From Moraxella nasicaprae (GTDB taxonomy: Bacteria; Pseudomonadota; Gammaproteobacteria; Pseudomonadales; Moraxellaceae): a stretch of DNA of 32,000 nucleotides. A program made the position numbers and the translations under genes. The first letter of the stretch is position 1. Each line of letters opens with the position of its first letter. The notes under the pieces were generated by a model. It worked only from the letters and a program-made list of their open reading frames with translations. It ran no database searches and was not told the origin of the DNA. Below are positions 4,785 through 17,147 of the stretch, piece after piece. The stretch spans positions 570,001 through 602,000 of the forward strand of contig NZ_CP089977.1 of the NCBI RefSeq assembly GCF_025643275.1, in the 5' to 3' direction.

Positions 4785-4860
4785 ACAAAACCTTACTAAC
4801 GGATTGATATTGTGAGGTATTATAACACGGCTGATGGTTTTGGTTTTTAAAAATTTAAGA

Positions 4861-4890
4861 AAAAAACCGCTTAAACATTCCTGCAAGCGG
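4861..4890 (-). terminator. Rho-independent terminator of the SMR gene
   Basis: Stem CCGCTT (4867-4872) / AAGCGG (4885-4890), followed on the minus strand by a T6 run (4861-4866). Confidence 0.7.
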
Positions 4891-4898
4891 TATTTATC

Positions 4899-5231: not shown

Positions 5232-5261
5232 AAAATGCTCCTAAAATAAAAATAAATATCA

Positions 5262-5394
5262 GGTATTGTTAAATAAAGATAGATTTTAAGGTTTTCCGTT
5301 CGGACTGAGCTTGTCGAAGTCTAGGAAAACCGTTATGGTTCGACAAGCTCACCACGAACGGTTTTCTAGAAAAGTATACTCAATTAACAATACC
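5262..5394. repeat. 133-bp palindromic (MITE-like) element in the SMR upstream region
   Basis: 11-bp perfect terminal inverted repeats: GGTATTGTTAA at 5262-5272 and TTAACAATACC at 5384-5394. Inner 12-bp perfect IR: GAGCTTGTCGAA at 5307-5318 and TTCGACAAGCTC at 5339-5350. Flanking pair CCGTTCG 5296-5302 / CGAACGG 5355-5361. Competing pairings GGTTTTCC 5290-5297 / GGAAAACC 5324-5331 / GGTTTTC 5360-5366. Confidence 0.7.
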
Positions 5395-5420
5395 AAATAT
5401 CATACAGCGTTTTAAAAAAA

Positions 5421-6260
5421 TTAAACCGCCACTCTTTGCCCAATGTCTTTTAATTCAGAAAATTTCTCTACCAATCTTGGCATATCATCAAGACTCATTG
5501 CAAAGCCCCACAAATAAGTCATCACGGCATAAATATGCCCTGCTTGTACTGACTTTTTTGACAAGATAAATAAAGTCGCCCCAAATAATATCGCCAATGT
5601 TAATCCAATCATTAAATAAGAAAAGGCTTCACGATTGGAAATGGCAATACGAATTTTGGATAATACATCATAATGCTTGATTAAATGATGATGTTTATTT
5701 TGTTCAATCACATTGACTTCATTTTCAAGGCGGTTATTGAGTTTAAAATAAAGTTTATCATTTTGCCGACTATAATTTGGCAATATCAAAATAAACACAA
5801 ACAAAATAAATAGGGCAATCATTCCAGAATAAAATTCAAGCATTAACAGCATCACCACCGAACCAATAATATTAAATAAAGCCGTGATTAAAATCGGCAA
5901 ATGCTCCTCAAAAAATGCCACAAACTGCCGTGCCATCACAGCGTGGGCAGTGGCTGAGGTATTGCCTTTTTGTTTTTCACTAATAATGGCTTTACTCGCC
6001 AAATCAGCGTAAATTTTTACAAAGGCACGAGTATCCACTGCACGGCGTGCCGAACCCACAGACCATATCACAAAGACCATTAAGGCATACACCAAAGCGT
6101 GCCAAGTTTGCTGATTTAATACCGCATTGACCGCAAAACTGCCCACCAATGGATATAATAAAAACAACATATTTTCTAATGCCACTAAGCCAAAAGTTGC
6201 CGATAATTTTCTTTTATTGTTTAAGGCAATATTTTTTAGAGTATGAATTGCTGTATTCAT
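5421..6260 (-). CDS. ABC-exporter-type six-TM membrane domain protein lacking a nucleotide-binding domain
   Basis: 279 aa with a hydrophobic profile and spacing like an ABC exporter TMD. The stop at 5421 is followed by non-coding DNA, so there is no NBD. Its ATG at 6258-6260 abuts the MarR stop at 6261-6263. Confidence 0.5.
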   Translation of the reverse strand: MNTAIHTLKNIALNNKRKLSATFGLVALENMLFLLYPLVGSFAVNAVLNQQTWHALVYALMVFVIWSVGSARRAVDTRAFVKIYADLASKAIISEKQKGNTSATAHAVMARQFVAFFEEHLPILITALFNIIGSVVMLLMLEFYSGMIALFILFVFILILPNYSRQNDKLYFKLNNRLENEVNVIEQNKHHHLIKHYDVLSKIRIAISNREAFSYLMIGLTLAILFGATLFILSKKSVQAGHIYAVMTYLWGFAMSLDDMPRLVEKFSELKDIGQRVAV

Positions 6261-6698
6261 TTATTGTTCCAAATGATTTGCCATTAAGGTTTGCAAGTCT
6301 TGCATTTCTTTTAATAACAATAACATTCGCTCACCGCCAAATTCATCAATGATTTTTTGTTCAAGGTTTAACAGCGTTTCAATAATGGGTTTGGCAAAGG
6401 CTTTACCCTTATCGGTCAAGGATAGGATTTTTTCTCGTTTGTCATTTTGACTAATGATACTTGTGATTAAACCGTCTGCCTCAAAGCGTTTGCATAAAGT
6501 ATTAATGGTTTGTTTGGCAAGCACATATTCATCGGCAATTTGTTTTTGCGTGCGAAATTCATTGACCCAAAGGGCATAAAAAATCGCCAATTCATTATCG
6601 CTAATGCCATATTTTTTTGCAAAAATGGCATAACTTGCCACTATTTTGGTAGAAATATCGCCCAGTTGGTCTAGGGGATTTTTGGGGGTATTGCTCAT
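6261..6698 (-). CDS. MarR-family transcriptional regulator
   Basis: wHTH region TQKQIADEYVLAKQTINTLCKRFEADGLITSIISQNDKREKILSLTDKG. Start trimmed to MSNTPK (ATG at 6698, AGGAC RBS). Confidence 0.8.
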   Translation of the reverse strand: MSNTPKNPLDQLGDISTKIVASYAIFAKKYGISDNELAIFYALWVNEFRTQKQIADEYVLAKQTINTLCKRFEADGLITSIISQNDKREKILSLTDKGKAFAKPIIETLLNLEQKIIDEFGGERMLLLLKEMQDLQTLMANHLEQ

Positions 6699-6763
6699 AA
6701 AAATAGTCCTAAAATTCACTAATTGCATATTTTAGTCAATTTTAGGATGAATTGCAAGGTTTT

Positions 6764-6840
6764 TTCAGGCTAGTTGAAAGTTTATTTTGCAAAATTCCAA
6801 TCAAAAAACACCGCCTAATTTTTAAATTAAACGGTGTTTA
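6764..6840. repeat. Composite intergenic module, copy a (box + spacer + terminator hairpin)
   Basis: TTCAGGCTAGTTGAAAG TTTATTTTGCAAAAT ... AAAAAACACCGCCTAATTTTTAAATTAAACGGTGTTT. Lies directly 3' of the SnoaL-like gene. Confidence 0.75.
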
Positions 6841-6843
6841 AAA

Positions 6844-7284
6844 TCAGCCAATTACTCTGGTTTCACTAATCATAAAATTGGCAATGCGGTGTTTAATCAG
6901 CCACTTGCCATTTTCTTTGACATAGGTGTCATTGTAGCGAATGCTGTGGTCGTGCAGGATTTCTTTGCCGTCTTTGGTCTCAACCAATTTAACCGCACAA
7001 TAGTTAATCGCTGTGGCATTATTTTCATCAACAAAAGACACGCTGTGCTGTCCGTTGATATGATACACGGTGTGAAAACTTGCCAAAAAATCGCTAAATG
7101 TTTTTTCAATTTGGGCAACGCCTGCCATATCAAACACCAGTTTTCCACCAATAAAAGTTTGCACGATGGCATCAGGGGTAAACAATGACATTTGCTCGGC
7201 GACTTTTTTCTCGTCTGCTAAATTGGAAAAAGTATCTACCAAATCTTTTAAGGCTTGGCGTTCGGTGTGGATATTAAAATTCAT
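6844..7284 (-). CDS. SnoaL-like / NTF2-fold family protein
   Basis: About 146 aa with a pattern typical of NTF2-like SnoaL_4 proteins. Start placed at MNFNIH (ATG 7284) with a GGAG RBS 7 nt upstream. Confidence 0.55.
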   Translation of the reverse strand: MNFNIHTERQALKDLVDTFSNLADEKKVAEQMSLFTPDAIVQTFIGGKLVFDMAGVAQIEKTFSDFLASFHTVYHINGQHSVSFVDENNATAINYCAVKLVETKDGKEILHDHSIRYNDTYVKENGKWLIKHRIANFMISETRVIG

Positions 7285-7303
7285 TACTGGCTCCATTATT
7301 TAT

Positions 7304-8146
7304 TCACACATCAACCTTATAATTCATCAAAAACTTGGCGATTTCTGGGTTGCTGTGGTCAAAAATTAGCGATTTTCCTAAATCAAGCGTGGCGATTTTG
7401 GCATTGTCGTCCGCCGTGAGTTCAAAATCAAAAATAGCTAAATTTTCCTGCATTCTTTCAAGGCGACTGGATTTGACCAAAGCGACAATGTTTCTTTGCA
7501 CAAGCCAACGGCTGATAACTTGGGCGGGCGTTTTGCCGTATTTTTGGGCGATTTGTACCAGTACAGGATTGTTAAAAATGTCATTTTTCCCTTCGGCAAA
7601 ACTTGCCCACGCCTGCACTACTATGTCATTTGTTTGCAATTTTTCCACTTCATCAAACCGCTGATAAAACGGATTGACCTCAATCTGATTGACCATTGGC
7701 ATCACCTGATTGCCCGCTCCGAGTGCCACCGCAAACGCTGGCGTAAAATTGCTCACGCCAATGGCACGGATTTTGCCGTCATTGTACAGATGTTCCAAAT
7801 CCCGCCACGCAGAATAAGTATCGCCAAACGGCTGATGAAGTAGCACCAAGTCCAGATAATCAAGCCCCATACGGTCAAGCGAACGCAACACACTTGCCTT
7901 GCAATCGGTGTAATTGGAAATCCACACCTTAGTGGTAATGAAAAATTCATCTCGGGCAATTCCGCTGTTTTTTATCGCCAAGCCGACTTCACACTCGTTT
8001 TGATAACTTTGGGCGGTGTCAATATGGCGATAACCTGCTTGTATGGCTGTACTTACCAAATGCTCGGTATCTTGTGGGGCAATTTGAAAAGTGCCAAAGC
8101 CCAAAATTGGCATTTGTACGCTGTTGGATAAAGTGATGTTTTGCAT
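7304..8146 (-). CDS. Aldo/keto reductase (DkgA/YvgN-like, cytoplasmic)
   Basis: 280 aa. MPILGFGTF, GYRHIDTAQSYQNE, LDYLDLVLLHQP and IRAIGVSNF are classic AKR motifs. Confidence 0.85.
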   Translation of the reverse strand: MQNITLSNSVQMPILGFGTFQIAPQDTEHLVSTAIQAGYRHIDTAQSYQNECEVGLAIKNSGIARDEFFITTKVWISNYTDCKASVLRSLDRMGLDYLDLVLLHQPFGDTYSAWRDLEHLYNDGKIRAIGVSNFTPAFAVALGAGNQVMPMVNQIEVNPFYQRFDEVEKLQTNDIVVQAWASFAEGKNDIFNNPVLVQIAQKYGKTPAQVISRWLVQRNIVALVKSSRLERMQENLAIFDFELTADDNAKIATLDLGKSLIFDHSNPEIAKFLMNYKVDV

Positions 8147-8155
8147 AAATTACTC

Positions 8156-9304
8156 CTATTTCACTTCTGAAAATTTTAAAATGGCTTCTGGCAAACGCTC
8201 GCCCATAATTTGAATTTGCTCCAATTCAGTGCGGAATGCTTTTAATTCATCATCACCAAAGACAATGTCGCTTGCCCCCAAATTCTCCATTAAATGAAAG
8301 CCTTTGGTAGTACCTGCAATCGGTACAATGCCGTCATATTGAGCAAGTAGCCACGCCAATGAAAATTGGGCTGGGGTGCAGACTTTGCGGTTTGCCCATT
8401 TTCTGATTAACGCAAAGAGTTTGGCGTTTTGAGCCAAATTTTGCGGAGCAAAACGGGGCAAAATGCCACGCAAATCTTGACTAGGGTCATTGGCAAAGCG
8501 TGTGTGTTCATTGACATAGCCCGCCAAAGTCCCCATACCCAAAGGCGACCACGGCACAAAGCCAATGCCAAGCTGACGGCACACAGGCAACACATCATTT
8601 TCACGCCCACGAAACAGCAATGAATACTCGCTTTGAATGGCAGTAATGGGAGCAATGGCGTGAGCTTTTTCAATGGTTTGAGGCGACACTTCACACAAGC
8701 CATAGCCCAAAATCTTACCTGCCTGTATCAACTCTTTCATTACCCCTGCAATCTCTTCTACTGGCACTTCGGGGTCGGCACGGTGCTGATACAACAAATC
8801 AATGCGGTCGGTTTGCAAACGACTTAACATATTATCCACCACCATTTTGATGTGGTTAGGCTTGCTGTTTACCTTGCCTGTGCGTTGTCCTGTTTTTTGG
8901 TCAATATCCCAACCGTATTTGGTTGCCAAAACGATTTGATTGCGAAAAGGCTTAATCGCCTCGCCCACAATCCGCTCACTTTTAAAAGGTCCATAGGCTT
9001 CGGCTGTATCAAAAAAAGTAACACCGTGTTCAAAGGCTTGGCGAATGATTTTAACCGAATGATTTTTATCAGGTTCTGGCACGCCATACATATTTTGCCC
9101 AAAGCCTTGACAGCCAAGCCCCAAAGCTGACACGGTCAAATTGCCTAATTTTCTTGTGGGCAAAACAGATTGGGTGGTTTTGGTGGTGGATACAACATTT
9201 TTTGAGTGTCTAGCATTTGCCAACACACCAGAACAGGCGGATACCGCCATACCTACACCGATTAACCCACTGCTTTTTAACAGATTTCTGCGAGAAATAC
9301 TCAT
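8156..9304 (-). CDS. Aldo/keto reductase with twin-arginine (Tat) signal peptide
   Basis: N-terminus MSISRRNLLKSSGLIGVGMAVSACSGVLANA (SRRxLLK Tat motif + h-region + AxA). AKR core FFDTAEAYGP, IDLLYQHR. Start trimmed to ATG 9304 (AAGGA RBS). Confidence 0.8.
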   Translation of the reverse strand: MSISRRNLLKSSGLIGVGMAVSACSGVLANARHSKNVVSTTKTTQSVLPTRKLGNLTVSALGLGCQGFGQNMYGVPEPDKNHSVKIIRQAFEHGVTFFDTAEAYGPFKSERIVGEAIKPFRNQIVLATKYGWDIDQKTGQRTGKVNSKPNHIKMVVDNMLSRLQTDRIDLLYQHRADPEVPVEEIAGVMKELIQAGKILGYGLCEVSPQTIEKAHAIAPITAIQSEYSLLFRGRENDVLPVCRQLGIGFVPWSPLGMGTLAGYVNEHTRFANDPSQDLRGILPRFAPQNLAQNAKLFALIRKWANRKVCTPAQFSLAWLLAQYDGIVPIAGTTKGFHLMENLGASDIVFGDDELKAFRTELEQIQIMGERLPEAILKFSEVK

Positions 9305-9337
9305 CAAATTTTCCTTAAAATTTTCAAAATGCCAAAT

Positions 9338-9358
9338 ATTGAGTGTATTGTAATCAAT
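9338..9358. promoter_or_regulatory. Candidate LysR-type (T-N11-A) operator in divergent promoter region
   Basis: Perfect dyad ATTGA-N11-TCAAT at 9338-9358, between the AKR operon start (9304) and the LysR start (9415). Confidence 0.35.
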
Positions 9359-9414
9359 CATTTTGTTAAAATATATAAGCAAAATCAAAACAGACTGTTT
9401 AGGATATTGGAACA

Positions 9415-10290
9415 ATGCCATACTTTGACGACTTATATTTATTTTTAACGATTGTACAAACAGGCAGTTTTACCAAAGCTGGCGAAAAATTGGGCGTATC
9501 TAAATCTGCACTATCGCAAAGTATCAGTCATTTGGAAAACCGCTTAAATATCCGCCTATTAAACCGCACCACAAGAAGCGTCTCACCCACGCCAGAGGGT
9601 TTGTCTTTGTATAACGACCTTGCACCCCATTATTTTGCCATTGGCGAGGGGCTTGCCAAACTGACCGAACATCAAGCCCACATCACAGGCACAGTACGCA
9701 TTAACGCCAGTCATTTGGCGATACAAACGGTGATTTTGCCCAAACTTGCCCCTATTTTGAGCCAAAATCCGCATATTTTTGTACAACTTTACAGCGATAA
9801 CCGCTTTGTGGATATTGTGGCAGAAGGCTTTGATATGGGGGTACGGCTTGGCGGTACGGTCGCAAGCGGTATGATTGCGGTCAAAATTTCACAAATGGTG
9901 CAAATTACGCTGGTTGCCACGCCCAATTATCTAAAAAATAAAGACATTCCAAAAAGCATTGATGACCTAGACCATCATCATCTGATTAATCTGCAACTGG
10001 ATAAAAATAAACCGCCAATGGACTGGGAATTTTGGGTCAATGGCAAGGTGGTCTCTTACACGCCCAAAAGTCAAATTTTAATGAATGGCAATGGACTAAA
10101 TGCCATTTTGCAAGATTTGGGCATTGGGCTTGTGGGGCTGTCGCAAGTGGAGCGTTTCATCAAAACAGGGGAACTTGTTGAAATTTTACCAGAGTTTAGA
10201 ATGACTTATGAGCCATTTTATGCCTATTACCCTAGCCGAAAACACCATTCAAAGGCGTTTGAGGTGGTATTAAATGCGTTAAGGGAATAG
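9415..10290 (+). CDS. LysR-family transcriptional regulator
   Basis: 291 aa. N-terminal HTH FLTIVQTGSFTKAGEKLGVSKSALSQSISHLENRL. Divergent from the AKR operon. Confidence 0.9.
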   Translation: MPYFDDLYLFLTIVQTGSFTKAGEKLGVSKSALSQSISHLENRLNIRLLNRTTRSVSPTPEGLSLYNDLAPHYFAIGEGLAKLTEHQAHITGTVRINASHLAIQTVILPKLAPILSQNPHIFVQLYSDNRFVDIVAEGFDMGVRLGGTVASGMIAVKISQMVQITLVATPNYLKNKDIPKSIDDLDHHHLINLQLDKNKPPMDWEFWVNGKVVSYTPKSQILMNGNGLNAILQDLGIGLVGLSQVERFIKTGELVEILPEFRMTYEPFYAYYPSRKHHSKAFEVVLNALRE

Positions 10291-10292
10291 GT

Positions 10293-10370
10293 TTCAGGCA
10301 GCCTGAAAGGTTATTTTGCCCATTTTAAAATAAAAAAAACCGCTTGAATTGCTCAAACGGTGTTTTTCTT
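10293..10370. repeat. Composite intergenic module, copy b
   Basis: TTCAGGCAGCCTGAAAG GTTATTTTGCCCATTTT ... AAAAAAAACCGCTTGAATTGCTCAAACGGTGTTTTT. Lies between the convergent LysR and LLM genes. Confidence 0.75.
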
Positions 10371-10371
10371 T

Positions 10372-11307
10372 TCAAAATTGTGTCAAAGCATACTCTGCCA
10401 ATTCCGTCAGCACTTCATCGGCAGGTCTTTGTGTGGGTTTTAAATTTAACGCCAAATGCGTTACGCCTTTTTCTTGTTCTTTTACCCAAAAGTCTGCCAA
10501 GCCTTTTGCCCCGCCACGCAGATAAATGTTGTTAAACAGTTGGGTGGGGGAATTTTTATCCGCCAGCACTTCCACAAATTGAGCATAGCCAAAGGCGGTT
10601 GGCGTCTCTTTTTGGCGTAAATCGGCAAGGGTTTTGATGATGTTTGCCGTGTCATCGGGGTTCACGCCGTGCCACAGCCACGCATCAGGTACATTGGCAA
10701 GATACGCCATTTCTTGCCTTGCTCGCCCAATCGCCACAATGGGCAAGCGGTGTTTGGGTTTGGGGAGTAAATCCAAATTGCCTGTTAAATCGCCATAATG
10801 TTTACCATTAAAATGGGGAAAGTCCTGCTCGGTCAAGGTTTTAATCAGTTCAATGTTTTCACGAAAACGCTCGGCACGATTGGTAAAATTTTCATTAAAA
10901 GCAGGGTATTCCACAGGTCTATCGCCAGAGGATAAGCCCAATAAAAACCGTCCATTACTGAGTTTATCCACGCTGACCGCAGACTTGGCAATGTGAATGG
11001 GACTACGCAAAGGGGCAATCAGCCCTGCCGTGCCAAGGGCGATTTTTTGGGTGTGGGCGGACAAAAAACCAAGTGTAACCATCGGGTCAAGCCCTTGCCC
11101 CACATCGCCAAAATGAGGGTCATAAAACGGCACATCTCGTACCCACAATGCTGAAAAGCCCAAGTTTTCAGCCAGCCGTGCATTGTCGGCAATGGCGGTC
11201 AAATCGTCTGGAATGTGCTTTTGATAGCCCATAAAGGGAGCGATTAAGCCCAGTGTTAATTGATTTTGCCCAAAAACTTGGGAGAAAATGGGGGAAAGCG
11301 TGTTCAT
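10372..11307 (-). CDS. LLM-class (luciferase-like) flavin-dependent oxidoreductase
   Basis: 311 aa. LGFSALWVRD, GRFLLGLSSGDRPVEYPAF and overall luciferase-like pattern. Confidence 0.8.
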   Translation of the reverse strand: MNTLSPIFSQVFGQNQLTLGLIAPFMGYQKHIPDDLTAIADNARLAENLGFSALWVRDVPFYDPHFGDVGQGLDPMVTLGFLSAHTQKIALGTAGLIAPLRSPIHIAKSAVSVDKLSNGRFLLGLSSGDRPVEYPAFNENFTNRAERFRENIELIKTLTEQDFPHFNGKHYGDLTGNLDLLPKPKHRLPIVAIGRARQEMAYLANVPDAWLWHGVNPDDTANIIKTLADLRQKETPTAFGYAQFVEVLADKNSPTQLFNNIYLRGGAKGLADFWVKEQEKGVTHLALNLKPTQRPADEVLTELAEYALTQF

Positions 11308-11384
11308 TTTGGTGTACCTGTCTTATTTAAGATAAGGTATTTTAAGGGCTTTTGAGTTTGCTTAAAATGGGATAAATTGAGAAA

Positions 11385-11484
11385 GTGTTTTGCTAAATTG
11401 GCATAAATGATTTTTTTGGGCTGGCTGAAAAGGATTTTACCCCATTTTAAAAAACACCGCTTAATTTAAAATTAAACGGTGTTT
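11385..11484. repeat. Composite intergenic module, copy c (with 28-bp left extension)
   Basis: TTTTGCTAAATTGGCATAAATGATTTTT (11388-11415), then TTGGGCTGGCTGAAAAG GATTTTACCCCATTTT AAAAAACACCGCTTAATTTAAAATTAAACGGTGTTT. Confidence 0.75.
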
Positions 11485-11487
11485 GTA

Positions 11488-11796
11488 CTCATTCAACAAA
11501 TTGGATTGATTTGCTCGAAAACCAAATAATAATTGTTGAGTTTTGGCTAGATAGCGTACGCCTATCCTTGTGCGTTTACGATAATCTTGCTGTTGTGAAC
11601 GAATCGGTTTTAGCCATTCATCAGGTTGAACCTGTGCCAAATGCTGAAAATGTGATGCCAAAACGTGCTGTTTATGCTCAATTTGTGCATTTAAATCCAA
11701 ATGCTGCAAATTACAACCACCACATTGCCTATAATATGTACAAAACGGTTGAACACGATTGCGTGATTGTTCCCCAATAATCCGCACCATATCTGC
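11488..11796 (-). pseudogene. rlmD: Internal fragment of 23S rRNA (uracil-C5)-methyltransferase RlmD/RumA, truncated at both ends
   Basis: ADMVRIIGEQSRNRVQPFCTYYRQCGGCNLQH...DYRKRTRIGVRYLAKTQQLLFGFR parallels the E. coli RlmD Fe-S cluster region (RCPHFGVCGGCQQQH...[23 protein letters not shown]). The TRAM N-terminus and the whole methyltransferase domain are missing. The ORF tail is read from module c. Confidence 0.8.
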
Positions 11797-11880
11797 CTCA
11801 ATAAATATTAATTTTATTTGCAATACCAGAGACCAAAATAGGATTATACATGGGTCATATTCTCAAAATTTCATCATAAG

Positions 11881-12363
11881 TTATGATTTAAATTGACATC
11901 TGGCTTTATTTTCAGTTTGATAATCAAAGCGATATTTTTGCACACCGTCAGGCGTTTCTTTGGATAAAATCACATATTTTTTAGGTTTTAATTTAACCAA
12001 ATGCAACTGCGTTAAAAAAGGTCGATAATCATAACCAGACGAGATATAAAAATTAGCCATCACGCCATTATCATTTTCAGGCACGCCAACAATACGATAT
12101 AAGGGTTTCTCTGTATTATGACAATCATATTTCCATTCACGATAAAAATAATAACCCTTGTTATCACTATGTTCGCCTAATTCAAACACAATCGAATGAT
12201 GTGTTGTTGGGTCATCATAGACCCAAAAAGCATTGGCTAAACGGCTTGCCAATGGTTGACGTTCGATATTGATTGATTGTGTGCCGACACCTGATTTTGC
12301 ATAGCTGATTTGACTACACAATACTCCACCCAATAAAATACACCACACCAAGTTAAAACGCAT
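11881..12363 (-). CDS. Secreted hypothetical protein (Sec signal peptide)
   Basis: 160 aa. N-terminal MRFNLVWCILLGGVLCSQISYA signal. No family recognised. Start overlaps the upstream gene by 11 nt. Confidence 0.6.
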   Translation of the reverse strand: MRFNLVWCILLGGVLCSQISYAKSGVGTQSINIERQPLASRLANAFWVYDDPTTHHSIVFELGEHSDNKGYYFYREWKYDCHNTEKPLYRIVGVPENDNGVMANFYISSGYDYRPFLTQLHLVKLKPKKYVILSKETPDGVQKYRFDYQTENKARCQFKS

Positions 12364-12595
12364 TATACATCCCCTTCATCAATCGAAAATATTCCCACTC
12401 TTCCACCACCTGCCCATTTGGCAACACACAGACACCGTATTCTGAACCGTCAGCATTTTTACGGATTTGCGATTGTCCGCCTTGTTTCACACAAAATTCC
12501 GAAGCTGGATTAAGTGCATCGGTGATTTGGTTTGGCGTACTTTGACAGGCGGTCAAAACACTCATCATCACTCCCAATAGCAGTAAGTTTTTCAT
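12353..12595 (-). CDS. DUF333-domain lipoprotein (so-called putative hemolysin family)
   Basis: 80 aa. Lipobox LTAC. NPASEFCVKQGG...GVCVLPNGQVVEEWEYFR matches the DUF333 pattern. Confidence 0.75.
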   Translation of the reverse strand: MKNLLLLGVMMSVLTACQSTPNQITDALNPASEFCVKQGGQSQIRKNADGSEYGVCVLPNGQVVEEWEYFRLMKGMYNAF

Positions 12596-12680
12596 TTTTA
12601 ATACCTTTTTCAGTTAAGAAATGGCGGTATTGTAAGCGGTTTTGGCTTAAAGTTTAAGTATTCAATTGTGAAATGGCTTG

Positions 12681-12757
12681 TCAGGCAGCCTGAAAACCCA
12701 TTTTGCAAAATTTTTATAAAAAAACACCGTTTTCAATTTAACGAAAACGGTGTTTTT
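12681..12757. repeat. Composite intergenic module, copy d
   Basis: TCAGGCAGCCTGAAAA CCCATTTTGCAAAATTTTT ... AAAAAACACCGTTTTCAATTTAACGAAAACGGTGTTTTT. Lies directly 3' of the ABM gene. Confidence 0.75.
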
Positions 12758-12766
12758 AATTAAAAA

Positions 12767-13117
12767 TCAACCAATTCGCTTACCAAATTCAAATGGCATA
12801 TCGCTATACACCACTTCAAATAAGCCATTGAAATATTGAATGCCGTCCATTACCCCTGCTGGCATATCTTTGTGGGCAGTTTGCAGGGCTTTTTGGAATT
12901 TCTCGGGGCTTTCCCATAAAGCGACATTCACAAATTTAAAATGCCCATTGGGGTCAATGTTTTTGTGTAATTGGGTAGCGATATAGCCATCTTGGGTTTT
13001 TAAAAATTCGGCAGACTTTTGCCAAAATTCCAACATTACCGCTTCTTTTTCGGCTGGGACAATAAAGCTGTTAATCAGCACATAAGCGTCTTTTGGATTG
13101 AAAGTTACATTGCTCAT
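12767..13117 (-). CDS. Antibiotic-biosynthesis-monooxygenase (ABM) family protein
   Basis: 116 aa with ferredoxin-like ABM pattern (INSFIVP...EFW...YIATQLH...FKFVNVALWES). Confidence 0.65.
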   Translation of the reverse strand: MSNVTFNPKDAYVLINSFIVPAEKEAVMLEFWQKSAEFLKTQDGYIATQLHKNIDPNGHFKFVNVALWESPEKFQKALQTAHKDMPAGVMDGIQYFNGLFEVVYSDMPFEFGKRIG

Positions 13118-13173
13118 AGATTACTCCGATGGTTAAAATAAACAGTTAAAAAATAGAAAACTTATGCAATAAA

Positions 13174-13632
13174 TTATATCATTTTTGATAAAACTTTCTC
13201 GCCTTTTATTTGATGGAAAATTGCCAATCCAATATGCCCAACAATTAAAAGTAATAAAAGCATTGCTAATTCGCCGTGCAAATTATTACCAAGCTGTACC
13301 AAAAATTCATTGCCATTTTCACGCCCAATATTTCTTGCCATTCCCAAAACAGGAACAATCAACATCAAAGCATATAAGGCAAAATGTCCAATTTTGACTT
13401 TCGTATCGTTTTTTGGGCGTTTTTTGGCATTAACCGCCGCCCACACAATGCGAAGCACGGTCAAAACCAGCACCGCCATTCCAAGAGCCTGATGTGGCTG
13501 TAACAAAAAGCGTAAGTCCGGGTTAAATTTGGCAATGAGTGCTGTGGCAAACATAGCGATGTAGCCTAAAAATATGCCCCAGTGCAACAGGCGTGAGATG
13601 GTGCCGTAGCGGTTTTGAGTGTCTGGTTTCAT
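13174..13632 (-). CDS. Cytochrome b561-family membrane protein
   Basis: 152 aa with 4 TM segments. N-terminal RYGTISRLLHWGI motif plus conserved His residues in later helices. Confidence 0.7.
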   Translation of the reverse strand: MKPDTQNRYGTISRLLHWGIFLGYIAMFATALIAKFNPDLRFLLQPHQALGMAVLVLTVLRIVWAAVNAKKRPKNDTKVKIGHFALYALMLIVPVLGMARNIGRENGNEFLVQLGNNLHGELAMLLLLLIVGHIGLAIFHQIKGEKVLSKMI

Positions 13633-13649
13633 TTGCGTTCTCCAATTTA

Positions 13650-13705
13650 TATAGCTTACTATGGAAAATAGTATAGCACACTATGCATTTAAATAGCAAG
13701 CTATA
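13650..13705. promoter_or_regulatory. Candidate MarR operator (imperfect 13-bp inverted repeat) in divergent promoter region
   Basis: TATAGCTTACTAT at 13650-13662 versus ATAGCAAGCTATA at 13693-13705 (12/13 complementary). A related ATAGTATAGC lies in between. Confidence 0.4.
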
Positions 13706-13721
13706 TTTTTATTCATTTTTG

Positions 13722-13730
13722 TGTTATAAT
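13722..13730 (+). promoter_or_regulatory. Extended -10 promoter element for the MarR gene
   Basis: TGTTATAAT (TGn + TATAAT), 31 nt upstream of ATG 13761. Confidence 0.45.
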
Positions 13731-13760
13731 AATAGTACTTTGATTTATAAGGAAAAATAA

Positions 13761-14198
13761 ATGACGATTAACCAAAAAAATTCGCTGGGCTATCTGACCA
13801 ATATGATTGCTCGCCAGTTTGCCCAGCTTATCGGACAAGAGCTTGCCCCTTTGGGCTTAAATCCTGCCTATTTGCCTGTGCTGTTTGAGCTGTGGGACGG
13901 ACAAGAGCTGACCCAGCAAGAATTGACCGAAAAAAGTTCGGTTTCGCAAGCGACAATGGCAAACACGCTGGGGCGTATGGAGCGGGACGGTCTGATTGAA
14001 CGCCTGCCCAACCCAAACGATGCCAGAAGTCGGCTGATACGGCTGACCTCTGCCGCCCTTGCCAAAAAAGACGATTGTGTCGCCGCCGCTCAAAAAATCA
14101 ATAACGGCGTGCTAGAAGCCCTTGACGAACAAGAAATCAAGGCGTGGCTTGATATTATGAATAAAGTGGTACAAAGACAAAAACAGATGTTGGGGTAG
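13761..14198 (+). CDS. MarR-family transcriptional regulator
   Basis: 145 aa. LTQQELTEKSSVSQATMANTLGRMERDGLIERLPNPNDARSRLIRLT. Confidence 0.85.
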   Translation: MTINQKNSLGYLTNMIARQFAQLIGQELAPLGLNPAYLPVLFELWDGQELTQQELTEKSSVSQATMANTLGRMERDGLIERLPNPNDARSRLIRLTSAALAKKDDCVAAAQKINNGVLEALDEQEIKAWLDIMNKVVQRQKQMLG

Positions 14199-14202
14199 GT
14201 TT

Positions 14203-14275
14203 GGGCTGGCTGAAAGTTTATTTTGCAAAATTTGAAAACAAAAGTGCCGTCTGAAATATTTTTCAAACGGCATTC
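14203..14275. repeat. Composite intergenic module, copy e (terminator arm replaced by a GCCGTCTGAA hairpin)
   Basis: GGGCTGGCTGAAAG TTTATTTTGCAAAATTT ... GTGCCGTCTGAAATATTTTTCAAACGGCAT. Lies between the convergent MarR and quinone oxidoreductase genes. Confidence 0.75.
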
Positions 14276-14294
14276 CATTTCATTTAAAAAACAA

Positions 14295-15284
14295 TCAAAC
14301 CTTAACCACAATCTTACCAATCTGCTGATTGCTTGCCATATATTCGTGGGCTTTAACCATTTCATCAAAGGCAAAGATTTTGTCAATTTCTGGGCGTAAC
14401 TGACCGCTTGCCAAACCGTCATAAACAAATTGTTTGGCTTGGGCGAGTTTTTCAGGCACGGTGGTGATTTCAAAGAGTTCATACCCCCTCACCGTCAAAT
14501 GTTTGCCCAAAATCGGAAAGACTGGCACAGCAATATCATCGTGGCTTAATGCCCCATAAATGATGTAACGACCATCTTGTGCCATTGCGTTGATGATTTT
14601 TGCCGCCTCTTGTCCGCCCACAGGGTCAAATACCACATTCACGCCTTTGCCGTTTGTGATTTTAAGAAGTGTGGCGGTTACATCGTCTTCGCTTGTGGCG
14701 ACCACAAAATCCGCCCCTTTTTCCAAAAGTACATCGCCTTTGGCGTGGGTGCGAGACAAGGCAATCACCGTTGCCCCTTGCATTTTGGCGATTTGAATGC
14801 TTGCCAGACCGACCGAACTGGTTGCACCGCCCAGCACCACCACATCGCCTTTTTGTACTTTGCCAAACTCAATCAGTCCGCCATAAGCGGTAACAAACGC
14901 CATCCAACTGGCGGACGCTTGTTCCATTGTCAGATTGTCAGGGTGCTTGACCACGGCGTGTTTGGGCATATTGACGATTTCGCCATAAGTGCCGTATTCG
15001 GTAAACATAAAAGATGGAATAATGCTGACCTTATCGCCAATGGCAACTTCGCTCACACCCTCGCCAATCGCCACGACCACGCCTGCCCCTTCGTAGCCCA
15101 AAGTCGCAGGGAATACAGGGTCAATCACATACGCCCCTTCTCGGTACATCATTTCGGCACGGTTTAAGCCAATGGCGTGGATTTGGATTTGTACTTCGTG
15201 TGCTTTTGGTGTAGGAATTGCTACATCAACGATTTGTAGCACATCAGGCGAACCTGTTTTTGTAAATTGGATTTGTTTGCTCAT
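14295..15284 (-). CDS. Zinc-independent MDR-family NADPH:quinone oxidoreductase
   Basis: 329 aa. GLNRAEMMYREGAY, nucleotide-binding GGATSSVGLASIQIAK, C-terminal GKIVVKV. Confidence 0.85.
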   Translation of the reverse strand: MSKQIQFTKTGSPDVLQIVDVAIPTPKAHEVQIQIHAIGLNRAEMMYREGAYVIDPVFPATLGYEGAGVVVAIGEGVSEVAIGDKVSIIPSFMFTEYGTYGEIVNMPKHAVVKHPDNLTMEQASASWMAFVTAYGGLIEFGKVQKGDVVVLGGATSSVGLASIQIAKMQGATVIALSRTHAKGDVLLEKGADFVVATSEDDVTATLLKITNGKGVNVVFDPVGGQEAAKIINAMAQDGRYIIYGALSHDDIAVPVFPILGKHLTVRGYELFEITTVPEKLAQAKQFVYDGLASGQLRPEIDKIFAFDEMVKAHEYMASNQQIGKIVVKV

Positions 15285-15357
15285 TGTTTTGACCTTTTGT
15301 GAAAATAATGGGCGTATTTTAATGCAATGAATTTATTTTAAAAATCACATCAATCGC

Positions 15358-15447
15358 AAAACACTTTTGCTAAATTGGCATAAATGATTTTTCAGGCTTC
15401 TTGAAAAGAAAAACACCGCTTATCATAACGATAAACGGTGTTTTTTT
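15358..15447. repeat. Composite intergenic module, copy f (with 28-bp left extension, spacer deleted)
   Basis: TTTTGCTAAATTGGCATAAATGATTTTT (15365-15392), then CAGGCTTCTTGAAAAG AAAAACACCGCTTATCATAACGATAAACGGTGTTTTTTT. Confidence 0.75.
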
Positions 15448-15458
15448 AAAACATTGTC

Positions 15459-16016
15459 TTAAAAATTAATTTTAATCTCAACTGCCGAAATATCAACATC
15501 TGCGGCATAAGCGATCATTTCTTTCGCTTCGGCAATAATCTCAACCAAATCACGCTTGTCATCAACTTCCATCTTGGAGGCGTGATTGGTCATACTTTGT
15601 TTTGACATAAATGGTTGCCAATCTAAATCAGGTGAATTGACATCAAGCCCCATTTTTTGTAACACCTCATCAGCATTCAGATAAGAAACAGGGTAACGCT
15701 GTCCATTCGTCAGTTTTTTCCACACATTCTCCGTTGAATTATCTTGGGGTAATAACACATACTCACTAATTAGGATAATTTTTCTGCCTTTATAAGGCGT
15801 ATCAGAAGAACAGCCTGCAATTTTTCCCAGCATATAGGCTTGTCCGTGTTGAAAACCATCATCTTTAGCAGACCAGCTCTCACGATGATTTCGCATTACC
15901 AAAACATATTTGGCATTTTTGACACGCCCAGACTGCACAATCCAGTAACCAATACCACCCTCTTCCTCAAAGGTGGCTAAATTTTTACCTGAATAAATAC
16001 CGATAACTTTATCCAT
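15459..16016 (-). CDS. Hypothetical protein, no family recognised
   Basis: 185-aa ORF with no signal peptide or TM segment. Terminator (module f) lies immediately 3'. Possible TATAAT at 16060-16065 (minus strand). Confidence 0.55.
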   Translation of the reverse strand: MDKVIGIYSGKNLATFEEEGGIGYWIVQSGRVKNAKYVLVMRNHRESWSAKDDGFQHGQAYMLGKIAGCSSDTPYKGRKIILISEYVLLPQDNSTENVWKKLTNGQRYPVSYLNADEVLQKMGLDVNSPDLDWQPFMSKQSMTNHASKMEVDDKRDLVEIIAEAKEMIAYAADVDISAVEIKINF

Positions 16017-16066
16017 AGTTTAAACCTCGTTAAGAAATAAAACAGAATTTATGCGTATAATTATAT

Positions 16067-16166
16067 AATTTATCGCTTAAATTTGTCAATACTTAGCGTT
16101 AATTTTTTTAAAAATATCGCTTAGTTTTTAAAAAATTATCGTTAATTATTGAAAATATCGCAAATA
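16067..16166 (+). repeat. Five tandem iteron-like direct repeats, consensus AAAATATCGCTTAATTTT, period about 19-23 bp
   Basis: Cores TATCGCTTAA 16071, TAGCGTTAA 16094, TATCGCTTAG 16115, TATCGTTAA 16137, TATCGCAAA 16156. The last unit abuts a TATAAT at 16165-16170. Confidence 0.65.
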
Positions 16167-16226
16167 TAATGCCATTTACCCAAAAATCTGCTAAAATAAC
16201 AAAATACTTTTACCAAATCAGCACAA

Positions 16227-17147
16227 ATGAACCCCAAAAACACCACACTCCACGCCCTAGAAATTTTTTTAGCCGTTGCCCGTGAAAAAAACTTTTCCGA
16301 AGTCGCCCGCCAGTACGATGTGGCAAGTTCGGTCATTTCTCGGCAAATCAAGCAGTTAGAAGACGATTTTGGGCAAACCTTATTTTACCGTAGCACAAGG
16401 GCGATGAGCCTGACGCAGGCTGGGGAAGTTTTTGCCACGCACGCCAAAGCGATTTTGGGCGAATTTTCCCATTTAACCGACAAATTAAATGATAAAAATC
16501 AAGAACCTAATGGCATTATTCACATCAACGCCCCTGTATTTTTTGGGCAAAAACACATCGCTCCACATTTGGGCGAACTAGCCAAACGCTATCCCAAATT
16601 ACAAATCTACCTTACCCAAACCGATGATTTTATTGACCCTTATGGGGAAAAAGCGGACATTATTGTCAGAGTTGCCGTGCCGATGGACAGCAATTTAAAG
16701 CAAAAAATCATTGCTCGCCAACGCCATTTTTTGCTTGCCTCGCCTGCTTATTTGGCAAAAAACAGTACGCCCCAAACGCCTGATGAGCTTGCGACACATC
16801 AGGGGCTTTTTTATCGTGGGGAGTTGGGCGTATTGCGTTTTAAAAATTTAAATACAAATCAAATAATTGAAATTAAAGAGAAAATGGTCAGCAACAATGC
16901 GGACAGTTTGATTCAAATGGCAATGGACGGTGCAGGCATTGTGATGATGCCCGATTGGGCTGTGGCTGATGAAGTCAAAACAGGCAAACTTGTGCCGATT
17001 TTGTCCCATATCCCGATTGCCAGTGGTAATGAGGAGATTGTGCTTGCCATTTTGACGCCGCAAAGCACCTACCGCCCTGTGAGCGTGCAAGCGGTCATTG
17101 ATTTTTTGGTGGAAAAATGGGACGGTGGTCAAGTGTGGCAGGTGTGA
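16227..17147 (+). CDS. LysR-family transcriptional regulator
   Basis: 306 aa. HTH LEIFLAVAREKNFSEVARQYDVASSVISRQIKQLEDDFG. Confidence 0.9.
   Translation: MNPKNTTLHALEIFLAVAREKNFSEVARQYDVASSVISRQIKQLEDDFGQTLFYRSTRAMSLTQAGEVFATHAKAILGEFSHLTDKLNDKNQEPNGIIHINAPVFFGQKHIAPHLGELAKRYPKLQIYLTQTDDFIDPYGEKADIIVRVAVPMDSNLKQKIIARQRHFLLASPAYLAKNSTPQTPDELATHQGLFYRGELGVLRFKNLNTNQIIEIKEKMVSNNADSLIQMAMDGAGIVMMPDWAVADEVKTGKLVPILSHIPIASGNEEIVLAILTPQSTYRPVSVQAVIDFLVEKWDGGQVWQV

Follow-up and report, generated by a model that had tools for sequence, protein, structure and literature searches.

Minimal mobile elements (MMEs) of Neisseria, reportedly described by Saunders and Snyder in 2002 and by Snyder et al. in 2007, resemble the locus analysed here in that whole-gene units without mobility genes occupy sites whose content varies by genome, presumably through transformation and homologous recombination. 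The homology of MMEs lies in conserved flanking genes, whereas the candidate homology here is a repeated 75-nt tail inside an array, and its exchange spans three bacterial families.

The other close relatives are the uptake signals DUS and USS. Among the DUS of Neisseriaceae, AGGCAGCCTGAA, AGGCTGCCTGAA and overlapping dyads have been described (PMC7371117, section 10; PMC3630211, Fig. S6 legend). The AG-kingDUS/AG-simDUS dyad (Frye et al. 2013, PMC3630211; Hughes-Games et al. 2020, PMC7371117) is intergenic, terminator-associated and already in use as a marker for horizontally acquired islands; its sequence is identical to ours, exactly so in copies 2 and 4. In contrast to the known dyads, which are single or form a non-overlapping inverted pair, the dyad of this locus lies in Moraxella, outside Neisseriaceae, is degenerate in four of six copies and is in every case fused at a fixed distance to a terminator of Pasteurellaceae USS type. 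The Apl-type USS of Pasteurellaceae (Redfield et al. 2006, PMC1626085) has the core ACAAGCGGT, whose first two positions are weak, and segment 3, TTTTGCAAA, in the pattern ATTTN9TTTGC. The arrangement common to USS and module comprises a core (A/T)CAAGCGGT, an AT-rich or T-rich segment and TTTTGCAAA 16 nt downstream, with the inverted repeat placed within a terminator. The module differs in its commonest core, which is one mismatch off (TCAAGCGGTG) and paired with ACGG, in its occurrence in Moraxella and Neisseriaceae hosts as well, and in its apparent spread by copying of the whole unit, USS being generally attributed to point mutation and uptake bias. Inverted-repeat terminators formed by DUS or USS (Ambur 2007; Kingsford 2007; Spencer-Smith 2016; bioRxiv 10.1101/2025.10.24.684340) likewise place a rho-independent terminator at the 3' end of a gene, with an uptake signal as its stem. 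Unlike these, the module joins the signals of two families in one tail, and its dyad lies beyond the terminator, where a small separate hairpin can arise from it for the opposite strand. Fused USS+DUS terminators of this kind, together with their cassette arrays, appear to be undescribed, though the components are known.

Module copies in an acquired island

A profile HMM derived from 50 distinct modules, window copy 4 among the seeds, was searched with nhmmer against the window, the 32-kb stretch of Moraxella nasicaprae DNA under study. It recovered six matches, all in one orientation (Table 1), which bore out the six repeat copies placed here by the initial annotation. The profile had no match in positions 1-6700 or 15500-32000, so the proposal of a true repeat family limited to the mosaic half was upheld, the housekeeping half being without copies. 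The remainder of the window, a 20.5-kb stretch (L012) from a strain with 96% identity and a 21.4-kb stretch (L156) of M. nasibovis contained neither module nor DUS; about 45 kb of core Moraxella DNA was without any module copy. Placement at gene-unit boundaries also held for all six copies, each lying directly 3' of a minus-strand gene with its hairpin adjoining the stop codon.

According to Pfam/NCBIfam assignments, the island units encode MarR, SnoaL, two AKRs, LysR, luciferase-like, DUF333, ABM, cytochrome b561, MarR, Zn-ADH and LysR proteins. The closest named homologues of the island ADH and LysR were found in Mannheimia, Bibersteinia, Alysiella and Neisseria and not in Moraxella. The FAD oxidase adjoining the island was about 100% Moraxella nasicaprae, and PepN was only a distant relative of Neisseria PepN. 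The modules are foreign to the Moraxella host and limited to the acquired island.

Table 1. Coordinates of the modules and neighbouring features in the window, with profile matches and folding of the minus strand.
Feature	Position	Strand	Context	Parts	Profile match (E)	Fold
Mosaic island	6261-17147		small regulator/oxidoreductase units; holds all six modules			
Copy 1	6762-6839	-	tail of SnoaL-like gene 6844-7296(-)	box 6762-6780; USS segment 3 6784-6796; terminator hairpin 6803-6839	6764-6838 (1e-10)	15-bp hairpin then U-run, -18.5 kcal/mol, z -2.75
Copy 2	10292-10367	-	between convergent LysR 9415-10290(+) and luciferase-like monooxygenase 10372-11307(-)	exact DUS dyad 10292-10309; segment-3 variant 10313-10326; hairpin 10332-10367	10292-10364 (6e-15)	-21.8 kcal/mol
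Copy 3	11414-11484	-	joined to truncated rlmD fragment	degenerate box 11414-11431; shortened spacer 11434-11448; hairpin 11449-11484	11419-11483 (2e-8)	15-bp hairpin, -20.4 kcal/mol, z -3.4
Copy 4	12681-12757	-	tail of ABM monooxygenase gene 12767-13117(-)	AG-kingDUS 12683-12694; segment 3 12700-12715; hairpin 12718-12757	12680-12754 (5e-15)	16-bp hairpin, -25.7 kcal/mol, z -4.3
Copy 5	14200-14274	-	between convergent MarR 13761-14198(+) and Zn-ADH/quinone reductase 14295-15284(-)	degenerate box 14200-14216; segment 3 14220-14233; hairpin 14240-14274	14204-14270 (9e-6)	-19.8 kcal/mol, z -3.3
Copy 6	15389-15447	-	tail of 185-aa gene 15459-16016(-)	degenerate box 15389-15408 abutting hairpin 15409-15447; spacer absent	15391-15442 (2e-5)	16-bp hairpin, -22.8 kcal/mol, z -6.0
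Luciferase-like monooxygenase promoter/operator region	11364-11415	-	outside module; direct repeat with 15341-15392			
rlmD remnant (23S rRNA methyltransferase gene)	11461-11823	-	NCBIfam PRK13168.1, E 3e-34			
ADH promoter/operator region	15341-15392	-	second copy of direct repeat D14			

Terminator, USS and DUS parts of the tail

Each copy probably forms the 3' end of a gene unit gained by horizontal transfer, a tail in which a terminator, a USS and a DUS are combined and may serve uptake and swapping of the unit. On the gene-sense strand, the tail consists of three parts. The first is a putative terminator hairpin, A-run CACCG(T/C)TT..loop..AAGCGGTG T-run, whose 3' arm is an Apl-type USS core (ACAAGCGGT; commonest form TCAAGCGGT). 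The second is formed by the USS flanks, with the T-run as segment 2 and TTTTGCAAAA, 16 nt from the core, as segment 3. The third is the overlapping AG-kingDUS/AG-simDUS dyad, TTTCAGGC(A/T)GCCTGAAA, of the type found in Neisseriaceae of the Alysiella/Simonsiella/Kingella negevensis group. A common order of parts, as first annotated, was observed in general, the exceptions being a shortened spacer in copy 3 and its absence from copy 6.

The hairpin is predicted to be the intrinsic terminator of the preceding minus-strand gene. Folding of the minus strand gave 12-16 bp hairpins followed by a U-run in all six window copies, and 95% of cells were paired, with compensatory changes at seven pairs across 32 modules. 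The structure is specific to one strand: a C..A mismatch on the box strand became a U.G pair on the gene-sense RNA in 26 of 45 modules, the reverse being seen in one, and the inner stem scored +5.1 pairs on the sense strand vs +1.9 on the other.

By sequence, the hairpin 3' arm (consensus TCAAGCGGT) is the Apl-type Pasteurellaceae USS core, and the spacer ATTTTGCAAAAT matches the USS flanking segment 3 at its native 16-nt spacing. In a comparison made after the USS likeness had been spotted post hoc, 46 of 85 distinct modules carried the core with at most one mismatch on the sense-strand 3' arm, vs about 0.5% of shuffles. Distances of 16 nt and 15 nt between core and TTTGC were measured in 22 and five modules, respectively; native USS in Pasteurellaceae loci had 16 nt in five cases and 15 nt in three. 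Compared with the canonical 10-mer (ACAAGCGGTC), the most frequent core (TCAAGCGGTG) deviates at either end, and the hairpin 5' arm has ACGG instead of GCGG. Within the window the exact USS core was absent from all six copies. Mismatches to the core numbered three in copy 1 (TTAGGCGGT vs ACAAGCGGT), one in copy 2 (TCAAGCGGT), two in copy 3 (TTAAGCGGT), three in copy 4 (GAAAACGGT) and one in copy 6 (ATAAGCGGT), and the core was followed at 16 nt by TTTGCAAAA in copies 1 and 4 and by TGGGCAAAA in copy 2. The stem had been taken as common to five copies; the hairpin of copy 5 differs, being a Neisseria-type DUS inverted repeat with GCCGTCTGAA at 14246, its sole occurrence in the window, and the gene of copy 5 ends in perfect DUS inverted repeats in contigs L001 and L002.

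The box, TTCAGGC(A/T)GCCTGAA, is identified from its letters as the overlapping AG-kingDUS/AG-simDUS dyad of Neisseriaceae. Copy 2 has the exact AG-king/simDUS dyad (TTCAGGCAGCCTGAA; reference PMC7371117) and copy 4 an exact AGGCAGCCTGAA, while the box shows three mismatches to AG-simDUS in copy 1 (AGGCTAGTTGAA) and two mismatches in copy 3 (GGGCTGGCTGAA). The tags in the window are decayed: two of the six copies (2 and 4) have an exact DUS, vs 12 of 13 copies elsewhere in Moraxella and 7 of 8 copies in Alysiella crassa. The Moraxella host of the window is not known to use either uptake signal, DUS or USS.

Distribution across three families and homology breakpoints

A genome scan requiring an exact DUS plus AAACACCG detected full modules in at least 14 Moraxellaceae stretches, at least 13 Pasteurellaceae stretches and many Neisseriaceae stretches; the counts are lower bounds, and the distribution is that of the matches listed. 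The composite tail stood behind unrelated genes for redox, metal and detoxification functions, and did so in other Moraxella, many Pasteurellaceae, Alysiella, Conchiformibius and Neisseria, and cross-family blocks had 95-98% identity. In M. oblonga (L050), seven modules were packed into 7.7 kb with one gene ahead of each. The USS + DUS combination marks a gene pool common to the three families.

These tails could be passive baggage, i.e., ordinary donor terminators brought in by one or few large transfers and without a role in uptake or reshuffling. DUS and USS do sit in the terminators of their home families genome-wide (PMC3630211), DUS-pattern matches of Kingella pumchi and Conchiformibius adjoin the core genes glyQ, lpxD, tkt and mnmE, and part of the breakpoints lie outside modules. 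However, a genome-wide donor feature would bear the signal of one family, not two fused at fixed spacing, and single units occur in many different contexts. In the sampled Neisseriaceae loci, core genes rarely have the full composite behind them, and it is concentrated in detoxification arrays; in A. crassa too it seems to be concentrated in detoxification islands. With tails also exchanged between identical flanks (see below), we regard this account as unlikely.

The ends of homology would fit a role of the modules as places of exchange. Of 237 end points, 76 fell within modules, about 13-fold above the 2.5% module coverage used as null, an enrichment that an intergenic-only null would make much weaker; BLAST end points within modules are blurred by the resemblance of modules to one another. 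Window 10332-11484 matched A. crassa L033 957-2099 at 87% identity and this homology ended exactly at the hairpin end of copy 3, and the homology of M. oblonga L134 and of a Mannheimia-like stretch (L035) stopped at 15408, the box/hairpin joint of copy 6; some breakpoints lay elsewhere, e.g., at 16195 upstream of LysR. The same ADH and AraC flanks enclosed different modules, and gene units between copies had different surroundings in different genomes, as the initial annotation had anticipated. Module-enriched breakpoints and module swaps between identical flanks fit the junction idea without being proof of it, and it is plausible that the modules provide shared homology for unit swapping.

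Some of the same observations would suit a mobile element of the REP/MITE kind, copied to the ends of genes by a trans-acting transposase and only secondarily similar to uptake signals. Near-identical hairpins, loops included, stand behind unrelated genes (e.g., L033 15054 and 20142), the hairpin type of copy 3 occurs behind three different genes, modules are replaced between identical flanks, and dyad and segment 3 keep the same distance in >80 copies, pointing to copying rather than independent mutation. Against this, the six copies have neither element-spanning terminal inverted repeats nor target-site duplications, all cases examined have one orientation with respect to the gene upstream, inner stems vary with compensatory changes, all segments match known uptake signals at native spacing, and a transposase or RAYT-like gene was not found among the annotated window ORFs. 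The earlier idea of a new REP/MITE-like family was therefore abandoned, and such an element is considered quite improbable.

Tails combining terminator, USS and DUS stand behind unrelated genes in all three families, near-identical blocks included. In Pasteurellaceae and Neisseriaceae, the two tags would raise the uptake of unit-bearing fragments in natural transformation, and in every host the hairpin would end transcription, with the dyad and its T-tract perhaps providing termination for convergent genes too. The repeated tails of roughly 75 nt could act as homology patches through which units are added, lost or swapped. In this Moraxella the tags may be decaying passengers, while termination, and perhaps recombination, would be kept.

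Cassette-like arrays and neighbouring repeats

Integron attC cassettes and the BIMEs/REP of E. coli share with the modules small-unit arrays with a terminal hairpin element and mosaic repeats at gene 3' ends, respectively. A cassette array of attC-like sites serviced by a tyrosine recombinase would account for the same-orientation, mostly single-gene units with a terminal ~75-nt hairpin element in the window and in M. oblonga L050. It is nevertheless very improbable: RYYYAAC/GTTRRRY core sites are absent, a search of the window ORFs turned up neither an integrase nor a RAYT; it is on the mRNA-sense strand that the hairpin pairs best, G.U pairs included, and a U-run follows it; breakpoints scatter over the module rather than marking one fixed crossover point; and the units bring their own regulators and promoters. 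Operator sites, with the box palindrome and the ATTTTGCAAAAT palindrome bound by a MarR or LysR protein controlling the neighbours, would explain two palindromes per copy and the many adjacent regulator genes, but are scarcely credible for a module that lies downstream of the preceding gene's terminator with polarity fixed to that gene and not the following one, adjoins unrelated regulator families or none, and excludes the real shared operator-like sequence (TGC-N7-GCA).

The left 30-50 nt originally assigned to copies 3 and 6 (11385-11413 and 15358-15388) likewise fell outside the module and belong to the promoter/operator repeat of the next gene. Of the portable terminator-plus-promoter junction once envisaged, the predicted terminator stands, and the promoter is not carried by the module. 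The repeat, D14, extends over 52 nt at 81% with an exact core of 28 nt, and its two copies bracket a 4-kb stretch containing module copies 3-5 and four gene units. Its first copy, in whose promoter/operator region TGCTAAATTGGCA lies at 11391-11403, is kept upstream of the same monooxygenase gene in A. crassa; the second-copy sequence recurs ahead of ADH in M. oblonga L134 and the Mannheimia-like L035, where it begins right after the DUS dyad. Abutting copy 3, the rlmD remnant spans about residues 60-171 of 446 and marks a rearrangement junction.

The predicted terminator tail and its place in the island

The initial annotation had described six copies of a composite intergenic module, and inspection of the sequence found all six to be present. 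Each is a tail of ~75 nt made up of a terminator hairpin, a spacer and a box, parts that a repeat search of the window returned as the overlapping repeat families D1-D6. A profile HMM seeded with 50 distinct modules from other genomes, with window copy 4 also among the seeds, recovered exactly six copies in the 32-kb window in a single orientation (E values of 5e-15 to 2e-5). It gave no match in 1-6700 or 15500-32000, confirming the restriction of the repeat family to the mosaic half. As had been proposed, each copy occupies a gene-unit boundary 3' of a minus-strand gene, with the hairpin adjoining the stop codon, and the placement between convergent genes is true of copies 2 and 5. The six sites stood, but for copies 3 and 6 the left 30-50 nt formerly assigned lie outside the module and belong to D14, a distinct direct repeat of 52 nt that includes an exact core of 28 nt and lies left of these two copies. 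Copy 6 has no spacer, and copy 5 carries a differing hairpin. D14 forms the promoter/operator region of the gene that follows, and other genomes conserve it 5' of the same genes. The 28-nt identical stretch TTTTGCTAAATTGGCATAAATGATTTTT contains a TGC-N7-GCA (T-N11-A) dyad, is conserved 5' of the same genes in Alysiella crassa, Moraxella oblonga and a Mannheimia-like MAG, and is probably a LysR-type operator common to two units.

On the sense strand, a stable G+C-containing hairpin with a U-run stood directly 3' of the gene in six of six copies. Minus-strand folds gave hairpins of 12-16 bp followed by the U-run, with z from -2.75 to -6.0, and the plus-strand folds of copies 2 and 5 were weaker and interrupted. 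The ninth stem position was C..A in 26 of 45 distinct box-oriented modules and the reverse in only one; this combination is a mismatch on the box strand and a U.G pair in the sense RNA. The variable inner stem contributed +5.1 pairs on the sense strand versus +1.9 on the opposite strand (shuffles, 0.8 and 0.6). Across 32 aligned modules (alignment A1), a 15-pair helix was 95% paired with compensatory changes in seven pairs, and scored above all 500 shuffles and all slid controls. The hairpin is predicted to be an RNA-level intrinsic terminator of the upstream gene. On the opposite strand, the dyad of the box is able to fold a 6-7 bp hairpin followed by GUUUAUUUUG, which would fit termination of the convergent LysR gene at copy 2. 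No Rfam 15 family reached its gathering score, and terminator-like matches lay below threshold (E 0.05-0.7).

The host is assigned to Moraxella, since the FAD-linked oxidase beside the island is ~100% identical to a Moraxella nasicaprae protein, with the next matches all from Moraxella, and the window PepN is a distant relative of Neisseria meningitidis PepN. A low-GC Neisseriaceae host, a candidate prompted by the DNA uptake sequences in the box, was ruled out by this PepN distance, the CarO-like porin and the Moraxella best matches. The housekeeping half carries pepN, waaA, rsmE, pal, the CarO-like porin gene and pilin-like genes, and is 96% identical to a strain contig (L012). The small regulator/oxidoreductase units encoded in the mosaic half are MarR, SnoaL, two aldo-keto reductases, LysR, luciferase-like monooxygenase, ABM, cytochrome b561, MarR, Zn-dependent alcohol dehydrogenase (ADH) and LysR. 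The ADH and the LysR at 16227 have their closest named relatives in Mannheimia, Bibersteinia, Actinobacillus, A. crassa and Neisseria, at 85-92% identity. No exact-protein match was found to the window ADH, LysR, FAD oxidase, P0144 or P0217, no L012 protein near the boundary was identical to that of the window, and no island protein was identical in any compared locus. The rlmD fragment (23S rRNA methyltransferase), whose reading frame extends into the copy-3 hairpin, is the scar of an illegitimate junction; a tblastn search with the fragment and its neighbours against all loci revealed no source.

Coordinates of modules and other features within the window (USS and DUS, Pasteurellaceae and Neisseriaceae uptake signals)
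Feature	Position	Strand	Remarks
Island	6261-17147
Copy 1	6762-6839	-	Box with 2-3 mismatches; USS core with 3 mismatches, TTTGC 16 nt past core
Copy 2	10292-10367	-	Exact dyad; USS core with 1 mismatch, variant TGGGC 16 nt past core
Copy 3	11414-11484	-	Box with 2-3 mismatches; USS core with 2 mismatches
Copy 4	12681-12757	-	Exact kingDUS; USS core with 3 mismatches, TTTGC 16 nt past core
Copy 5	14200-14274	-	Box with 2-3 mismatches; without USS core, TTTGC at 15 nt
Copy 6	15389-15447	-	Box with 2-3 mismatches; USS core with 1 mismatch
28-nt identical stretch	11388-11415 and 15365-15392		5' of luciferase-like monooxygenase and ADH
rlmD fragment	11461-11823	-	~residues 60-171 of 446; abuts copy 3
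Stretch compared with M. lacunata L094	12353-13174		Complete ABM unit with copy 4 between cytochrome b561 and DUF333 genes
ADH unit common to window and L035	14206-15408		Copy 5 box to end of copy 6 box
LysR with upstream region	16195-17147		Retains ~32 nt of its own upstream region
FAD-linked oxidase	17486-18877
Direct repeat, 106 nt	4103-4208 and 4899-5004		92% identical
SMR/qac-type efflux gene	4899-5231	-	3' part lies in the direct repeat
AT-rich inverted repeat, 34 nt	16083-16155		82% complementary, 5 nt apart
Sigma-70-like promoter	16089-16060	-	Perfect consensus
Adjacent ORFs	6-788 and 851-1795	+	Match membrane and ATPase parts of a single SbmA/peroxisomal-type ABC transporter

Putative uptake signals of two families in one tail

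By sequence comparison, the 3' arm of the hairpin reads as a near-match to ACAAGCGGT, the 9-bp core of the Apl-type Pasteurellaceae uptake signal (USS). The alignment of 32 diverse modules gave the gene-sense consensus AAAACACCGTTTG..loop..TTCAAGCGGTGTTTTT-n-TTTT-n-AAATTTTGCAAAATAA-n-TTTTCAGGCTGCCTGAAAA. The commonest 9-mer in the place of the core was TCAAGCGGT (27 modules), and 46 of the 85 distinct modules had at most one mismatch to ACAAGCGGT (4 exact, 42 with one), against ~0.5% of shuffles. Of the modules with CAAGCGGT, 37 have it on the sense strand and 9 on the opposite strand. According to Redfield et al. 2006 (PMC1626085), the Apl-type USS has weak conservation at its first two core positions, and beyond the core come segment 2, which is AT-rich, and segment 3 'TTTTGCAAA', in the pattern ATTTN9TTTGC. 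Both segments were found at fixed spacing in window copies 1, 2, 4 and 5 (table). The distance from core to TTTGC was 16 nt in 22 modules and 15 nt in 5, and in native USS elsewhere in the Pasteurellaceae loci it was 16 nt in five cases and 15 nt in three, the modal distance of 16 being the same in both. From the core match, which is imperfect in the window copies, the flanks and the spacing, the spacer of the initial annotation reads as USS segment 3, and its stem of constant sequence as the USS core region. A new DUS dialect in the hairpin arm (ACACCGYTTGAA versus ATGCCGTCTGAA, 8-9 of 12 positions matching) was dropped in favour of the USS, which also accounts for the spacer and the spacing.

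The two strands of the box, TTCAGGCAGCCTGAA, carry AGGCAGCCTGAA and AGGCTGCCTGAA, respectively, known as AG-kingDUS and AG-simDUS, two dialects of the DNA uptake sequence (DUS) of Neisseriaceae. The two 12-mers overlap to make the dyad TTCAGGC(A/T)GCCTGAA. According to PMC7371117 and PMC3630211, Simonsiella muelleri has its DUS mainly in this overlapping form, which is likewise prevalent in A. crassa and Kingella negevensis. The DUS was mostly exact in related modules outside the window. The hairpin of copy 5 contains the classical Neisseria 10-mer GCCGTCTGAA, and in metagenome contigs the same ADH gene has perfect inverted repeats of DUS at its end.

The signal slots also accommodate other dialects, with an AG-DUS, AGGCCGTCTGAA, in the box slot of an Actinobacillus capsulatus module (L145:2025-2107) and AT/AG-type DUS inverted repeats in the hairpin slot of the ADH unit (window 14240-14274; metagenome contigs L001 and L002). 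In A. crassa L033 (CP091519.2), an IS with a DDE_Tnp_1 transposase (5700-6895) lies within a DUS dyad, with AGGCAGCCT at both flanks, and a second copy of the IS is likewise followed by a split dyad; the dyad may be a preferred insertion target.

No module, DUS or matching hairpin occurred in L012 (20.5 kb), in the M. nasibovis stretch around the FAD oxidase (L156, 21.4 kb) or in the window's other 23 kb. A strong genome-wide over-representation of DUS in the host, at ~1 per kb, was not seen, with 0 copies in the window outside the island, in L012 or in L156. After one ascertaining match per locus had been taken out, an exact DUS was present in 12 of 13 modules of other Moraxella, 7 of 8 in A. 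crassa, 5 of 8 in Pasteurellaceae, 1 of 4 in the Mannheimia-like L035 and 2 of 6 in the window. These counts, which are small, would fit erosion in hosts not using the signal.

Distribution of the module in other genomes

A genome collection was scanned with the single pattern AGGCWGCCTGAAAN{5,30}AAACACCG, demanding an exact DUS, and at least 120 stretches were matched. The matches listed included at least ~75 from Neisseriaceae, at least 14 from Moraxellaceae, at least 13 from Pasteurellaceae and at least 18 from unrelated phyla, the last being about the chance expectation. Among those listed, the Moraxellaceae were M. oblonga, M. lacunata, M. bovis, M. equi, M. cuniculi, Moraxella sp. Pampa, Moraxella sp. 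VT-16-12 and a MAG, and the Pasteurellaceae were A. capsulatus, Avibacterium, Rodentibacter, Pasteurella langaaensis, Ursidibacter, Lonepinella, Mannheimia indoligenes and [Haemophilus] felis. The full composite was typical of the listed Moraxella and Pasteurellaceae matches and of the A. crassa islands, and was also found at one Conchiformibius and one N. wadsworthii locus among the matches listed. In Kingella and ruminant Neisseriaceae MAGs the dyad was abundant without the rest of the composite, and the DUS-pattern matches of the Kingella pumchi and Conchiformibius loci adjoined core genes such as glyQ, lpxD, tkt and mnmE. A total of 11 metagenome contigs matched a strict composite pattern, the module density reaching four per 3.5 kb.

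The modules accompany varied genes. The 21 kb around the LysR homologue of A. crassa hold about ten modules, each behind an unrelated gene, and the luciferase-like gene with copy 3, as well as LysR, are 87-90% identical between A. crassa and the window. M. oblonga L050 has seven modules in 7.7 kb, one gene per module, the genes being a CDF efflux gene with MerR, two metallo-beta-lactamase-fold proteins, a cyclophilin-like protein, an esterase, a flavodoxin-like reductase, TetR and LysR; the same arrangement in A. capsulatus comprises nitroreductase, esterase, AraC, SDR, RibD_C, ADH and TetR. Blocks of 5-7 kb (L040, L120, L127, L047, L126, L149 and L130) carrying CDF efflux with MerR, an SBF-family transporter, MerR and DUF305 are 98% identical among Rodentibacter, Conchiformibius, [H.] felis, P. 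langaaensis and N. wadsworthii, with M. lacunata at 92%, indicating that a metal/detoxification block has passed between families very recently. The Mannheimia-like MAG and M. oblonga have in common a 4.4-kb block at 95% identity.

Possible recombination junctions and cassette exchange

The initial annotation had proposed the module as a portable junction giving shared homology for swapping gene units, a proposal that fits part of the data. In loci having at least 400 bp in common at an identity of 85% or above, modules (±10 nt) took in 76 of the 237 informative end points of homology and covered 2.5% of the sequence; the enrichment would be much smaller against an intergenic-only null. Homology between the window and A. 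crassa stops at 11484, the last base of the copy 3 hairpin, that with M. oblonga L140 stops at 6837, and the ADH unit in common with L035 runs from box to box (table). Tails also appear to have been swapped, as hairpins and spacer variants differ between the same ADH and AraC genes in L035 and L134, and unrelated genes are followed by near-identical hairpins, loops included. Against the proposal, the end points were scattered inside modules with no fixed position, crossover points are blurred because the modules resemble each other and alignments run on, and some breakpoints lie outside modules, such as 16195 upstream of LysR. This LysR has four divergent partners in four genomes (window, L033, L035 and L132), namely a 185-aa protein of unknown function, a nitronate monooxygenase, a luciferase-like monooxygenase and a metallo-beta-lactamase-fold protein. 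Further in favour of the proposal, the D14 repeat pair flanks the 4-kb stretch that parts monooxygenase from LysR in the window, and the two genes are adjacent and divergent in the Moraxellaceae MAG L132. It is plausible that the modules serve as homology patches for unit exchange. In M. lacunata L094 (3690-3819), the cytochrome b561 gene lies 48 nt before a DUF333 gene of which only the C-terminal third is present, where the window has the complete ABM unit with copy 4 between the two, a further unit-sized difference beside a module.

Uptake signals are usually viewed as species 'watermarks' that keep transformation inside a lineage, and are thought to build up by mutation and uptake bias. 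Here, the signals of two families stand at fixed spacing in one terminator tail behind dozens of unrelated accessory genes, and the tailed genes reach up to 98% identity among Pasteurellaceae, Neisseriaceae and Moraxella of animal airways and mouths. Such a pattern points to the opposite of watermark use, with tags that may favour the passage of particular genes between families. It is possible, if on balance doubtful, that the module is a copied 'bilingual' uptake tag driving cross-family cassette exchange and array building by transformation. Such a tag would spread as a copied unit and not by point mutation, and would direct a pool of self-contained detoxification, redox and metal cassettes to Pasteurellaceae through the USS and to Neisseriaceae through the DUS, with competent, sequence-indiscriminate bacteria such as Moraxella as the third host family. 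Repetition of the module between cassettes would let transformation and homologous recombination assemble and reshuffle integron-like arrays without an integrase, a recombination-only path to cassette arrays. The composite also offers a simple sequence marker of recently exchanged DNA in genera including veterinary pathogens.

Among known systems, the minimal mobile elements of Neisseria give a like outcome, but the candidate homology of the module lies within the array. Such elements differ in gene content between strains at one site with conserved flanking genes; for the present units, whose island extends on the left beyond the window, the neighbours differ from species to species. An attC site is rejected, as the module consensus lacks the core sites (RYYYAAC...GTTRRRY), no IntI integrase was found within the window and there is no fixed crossover. 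The REP/MITE-like family put forward by the initial annotation was not borne out, since the six copies have neither terminal inverted repeats nor duplicated flanks, their polarity to the genes is fixed, and no MITE/REP-type transposase, RAYT included, was found among the window ORFs. A plasmid origin was discarded for want of a plasmid counterpart (one irrelevant 81% match only), as was a phage origin, the loose pattern giving chance matches and the strict composite 0 matches in IMG/VR. Already known are the DUS dialects and their arrangement in dyads, the Apl-type USS in its extended form, terminators made from uptake signals, and foreign DUS dialects marking acquired islands. In the literature searched, we found neither a Neisseriaceae DUS dyad in fixed union with a terminator of the Pasteurellaceae USS type nor the association of this composite with self-contained detoxification cassette arrays in three families including Moraxella.

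Three further observations concern the window itself. The SMR/qac-type efflux gene is partly duplicated 800 nt upstream, as the 106-nt repeat holds its 3' part. The AT-rich inverted repeat lies between the 185-aa gene and LysR, in their divergent promoter region, where the sigma-70-like promoter was also noted. At the left edge of the window, the two adjacent ORFs could be a split or frameshifted ABC transporter gene.
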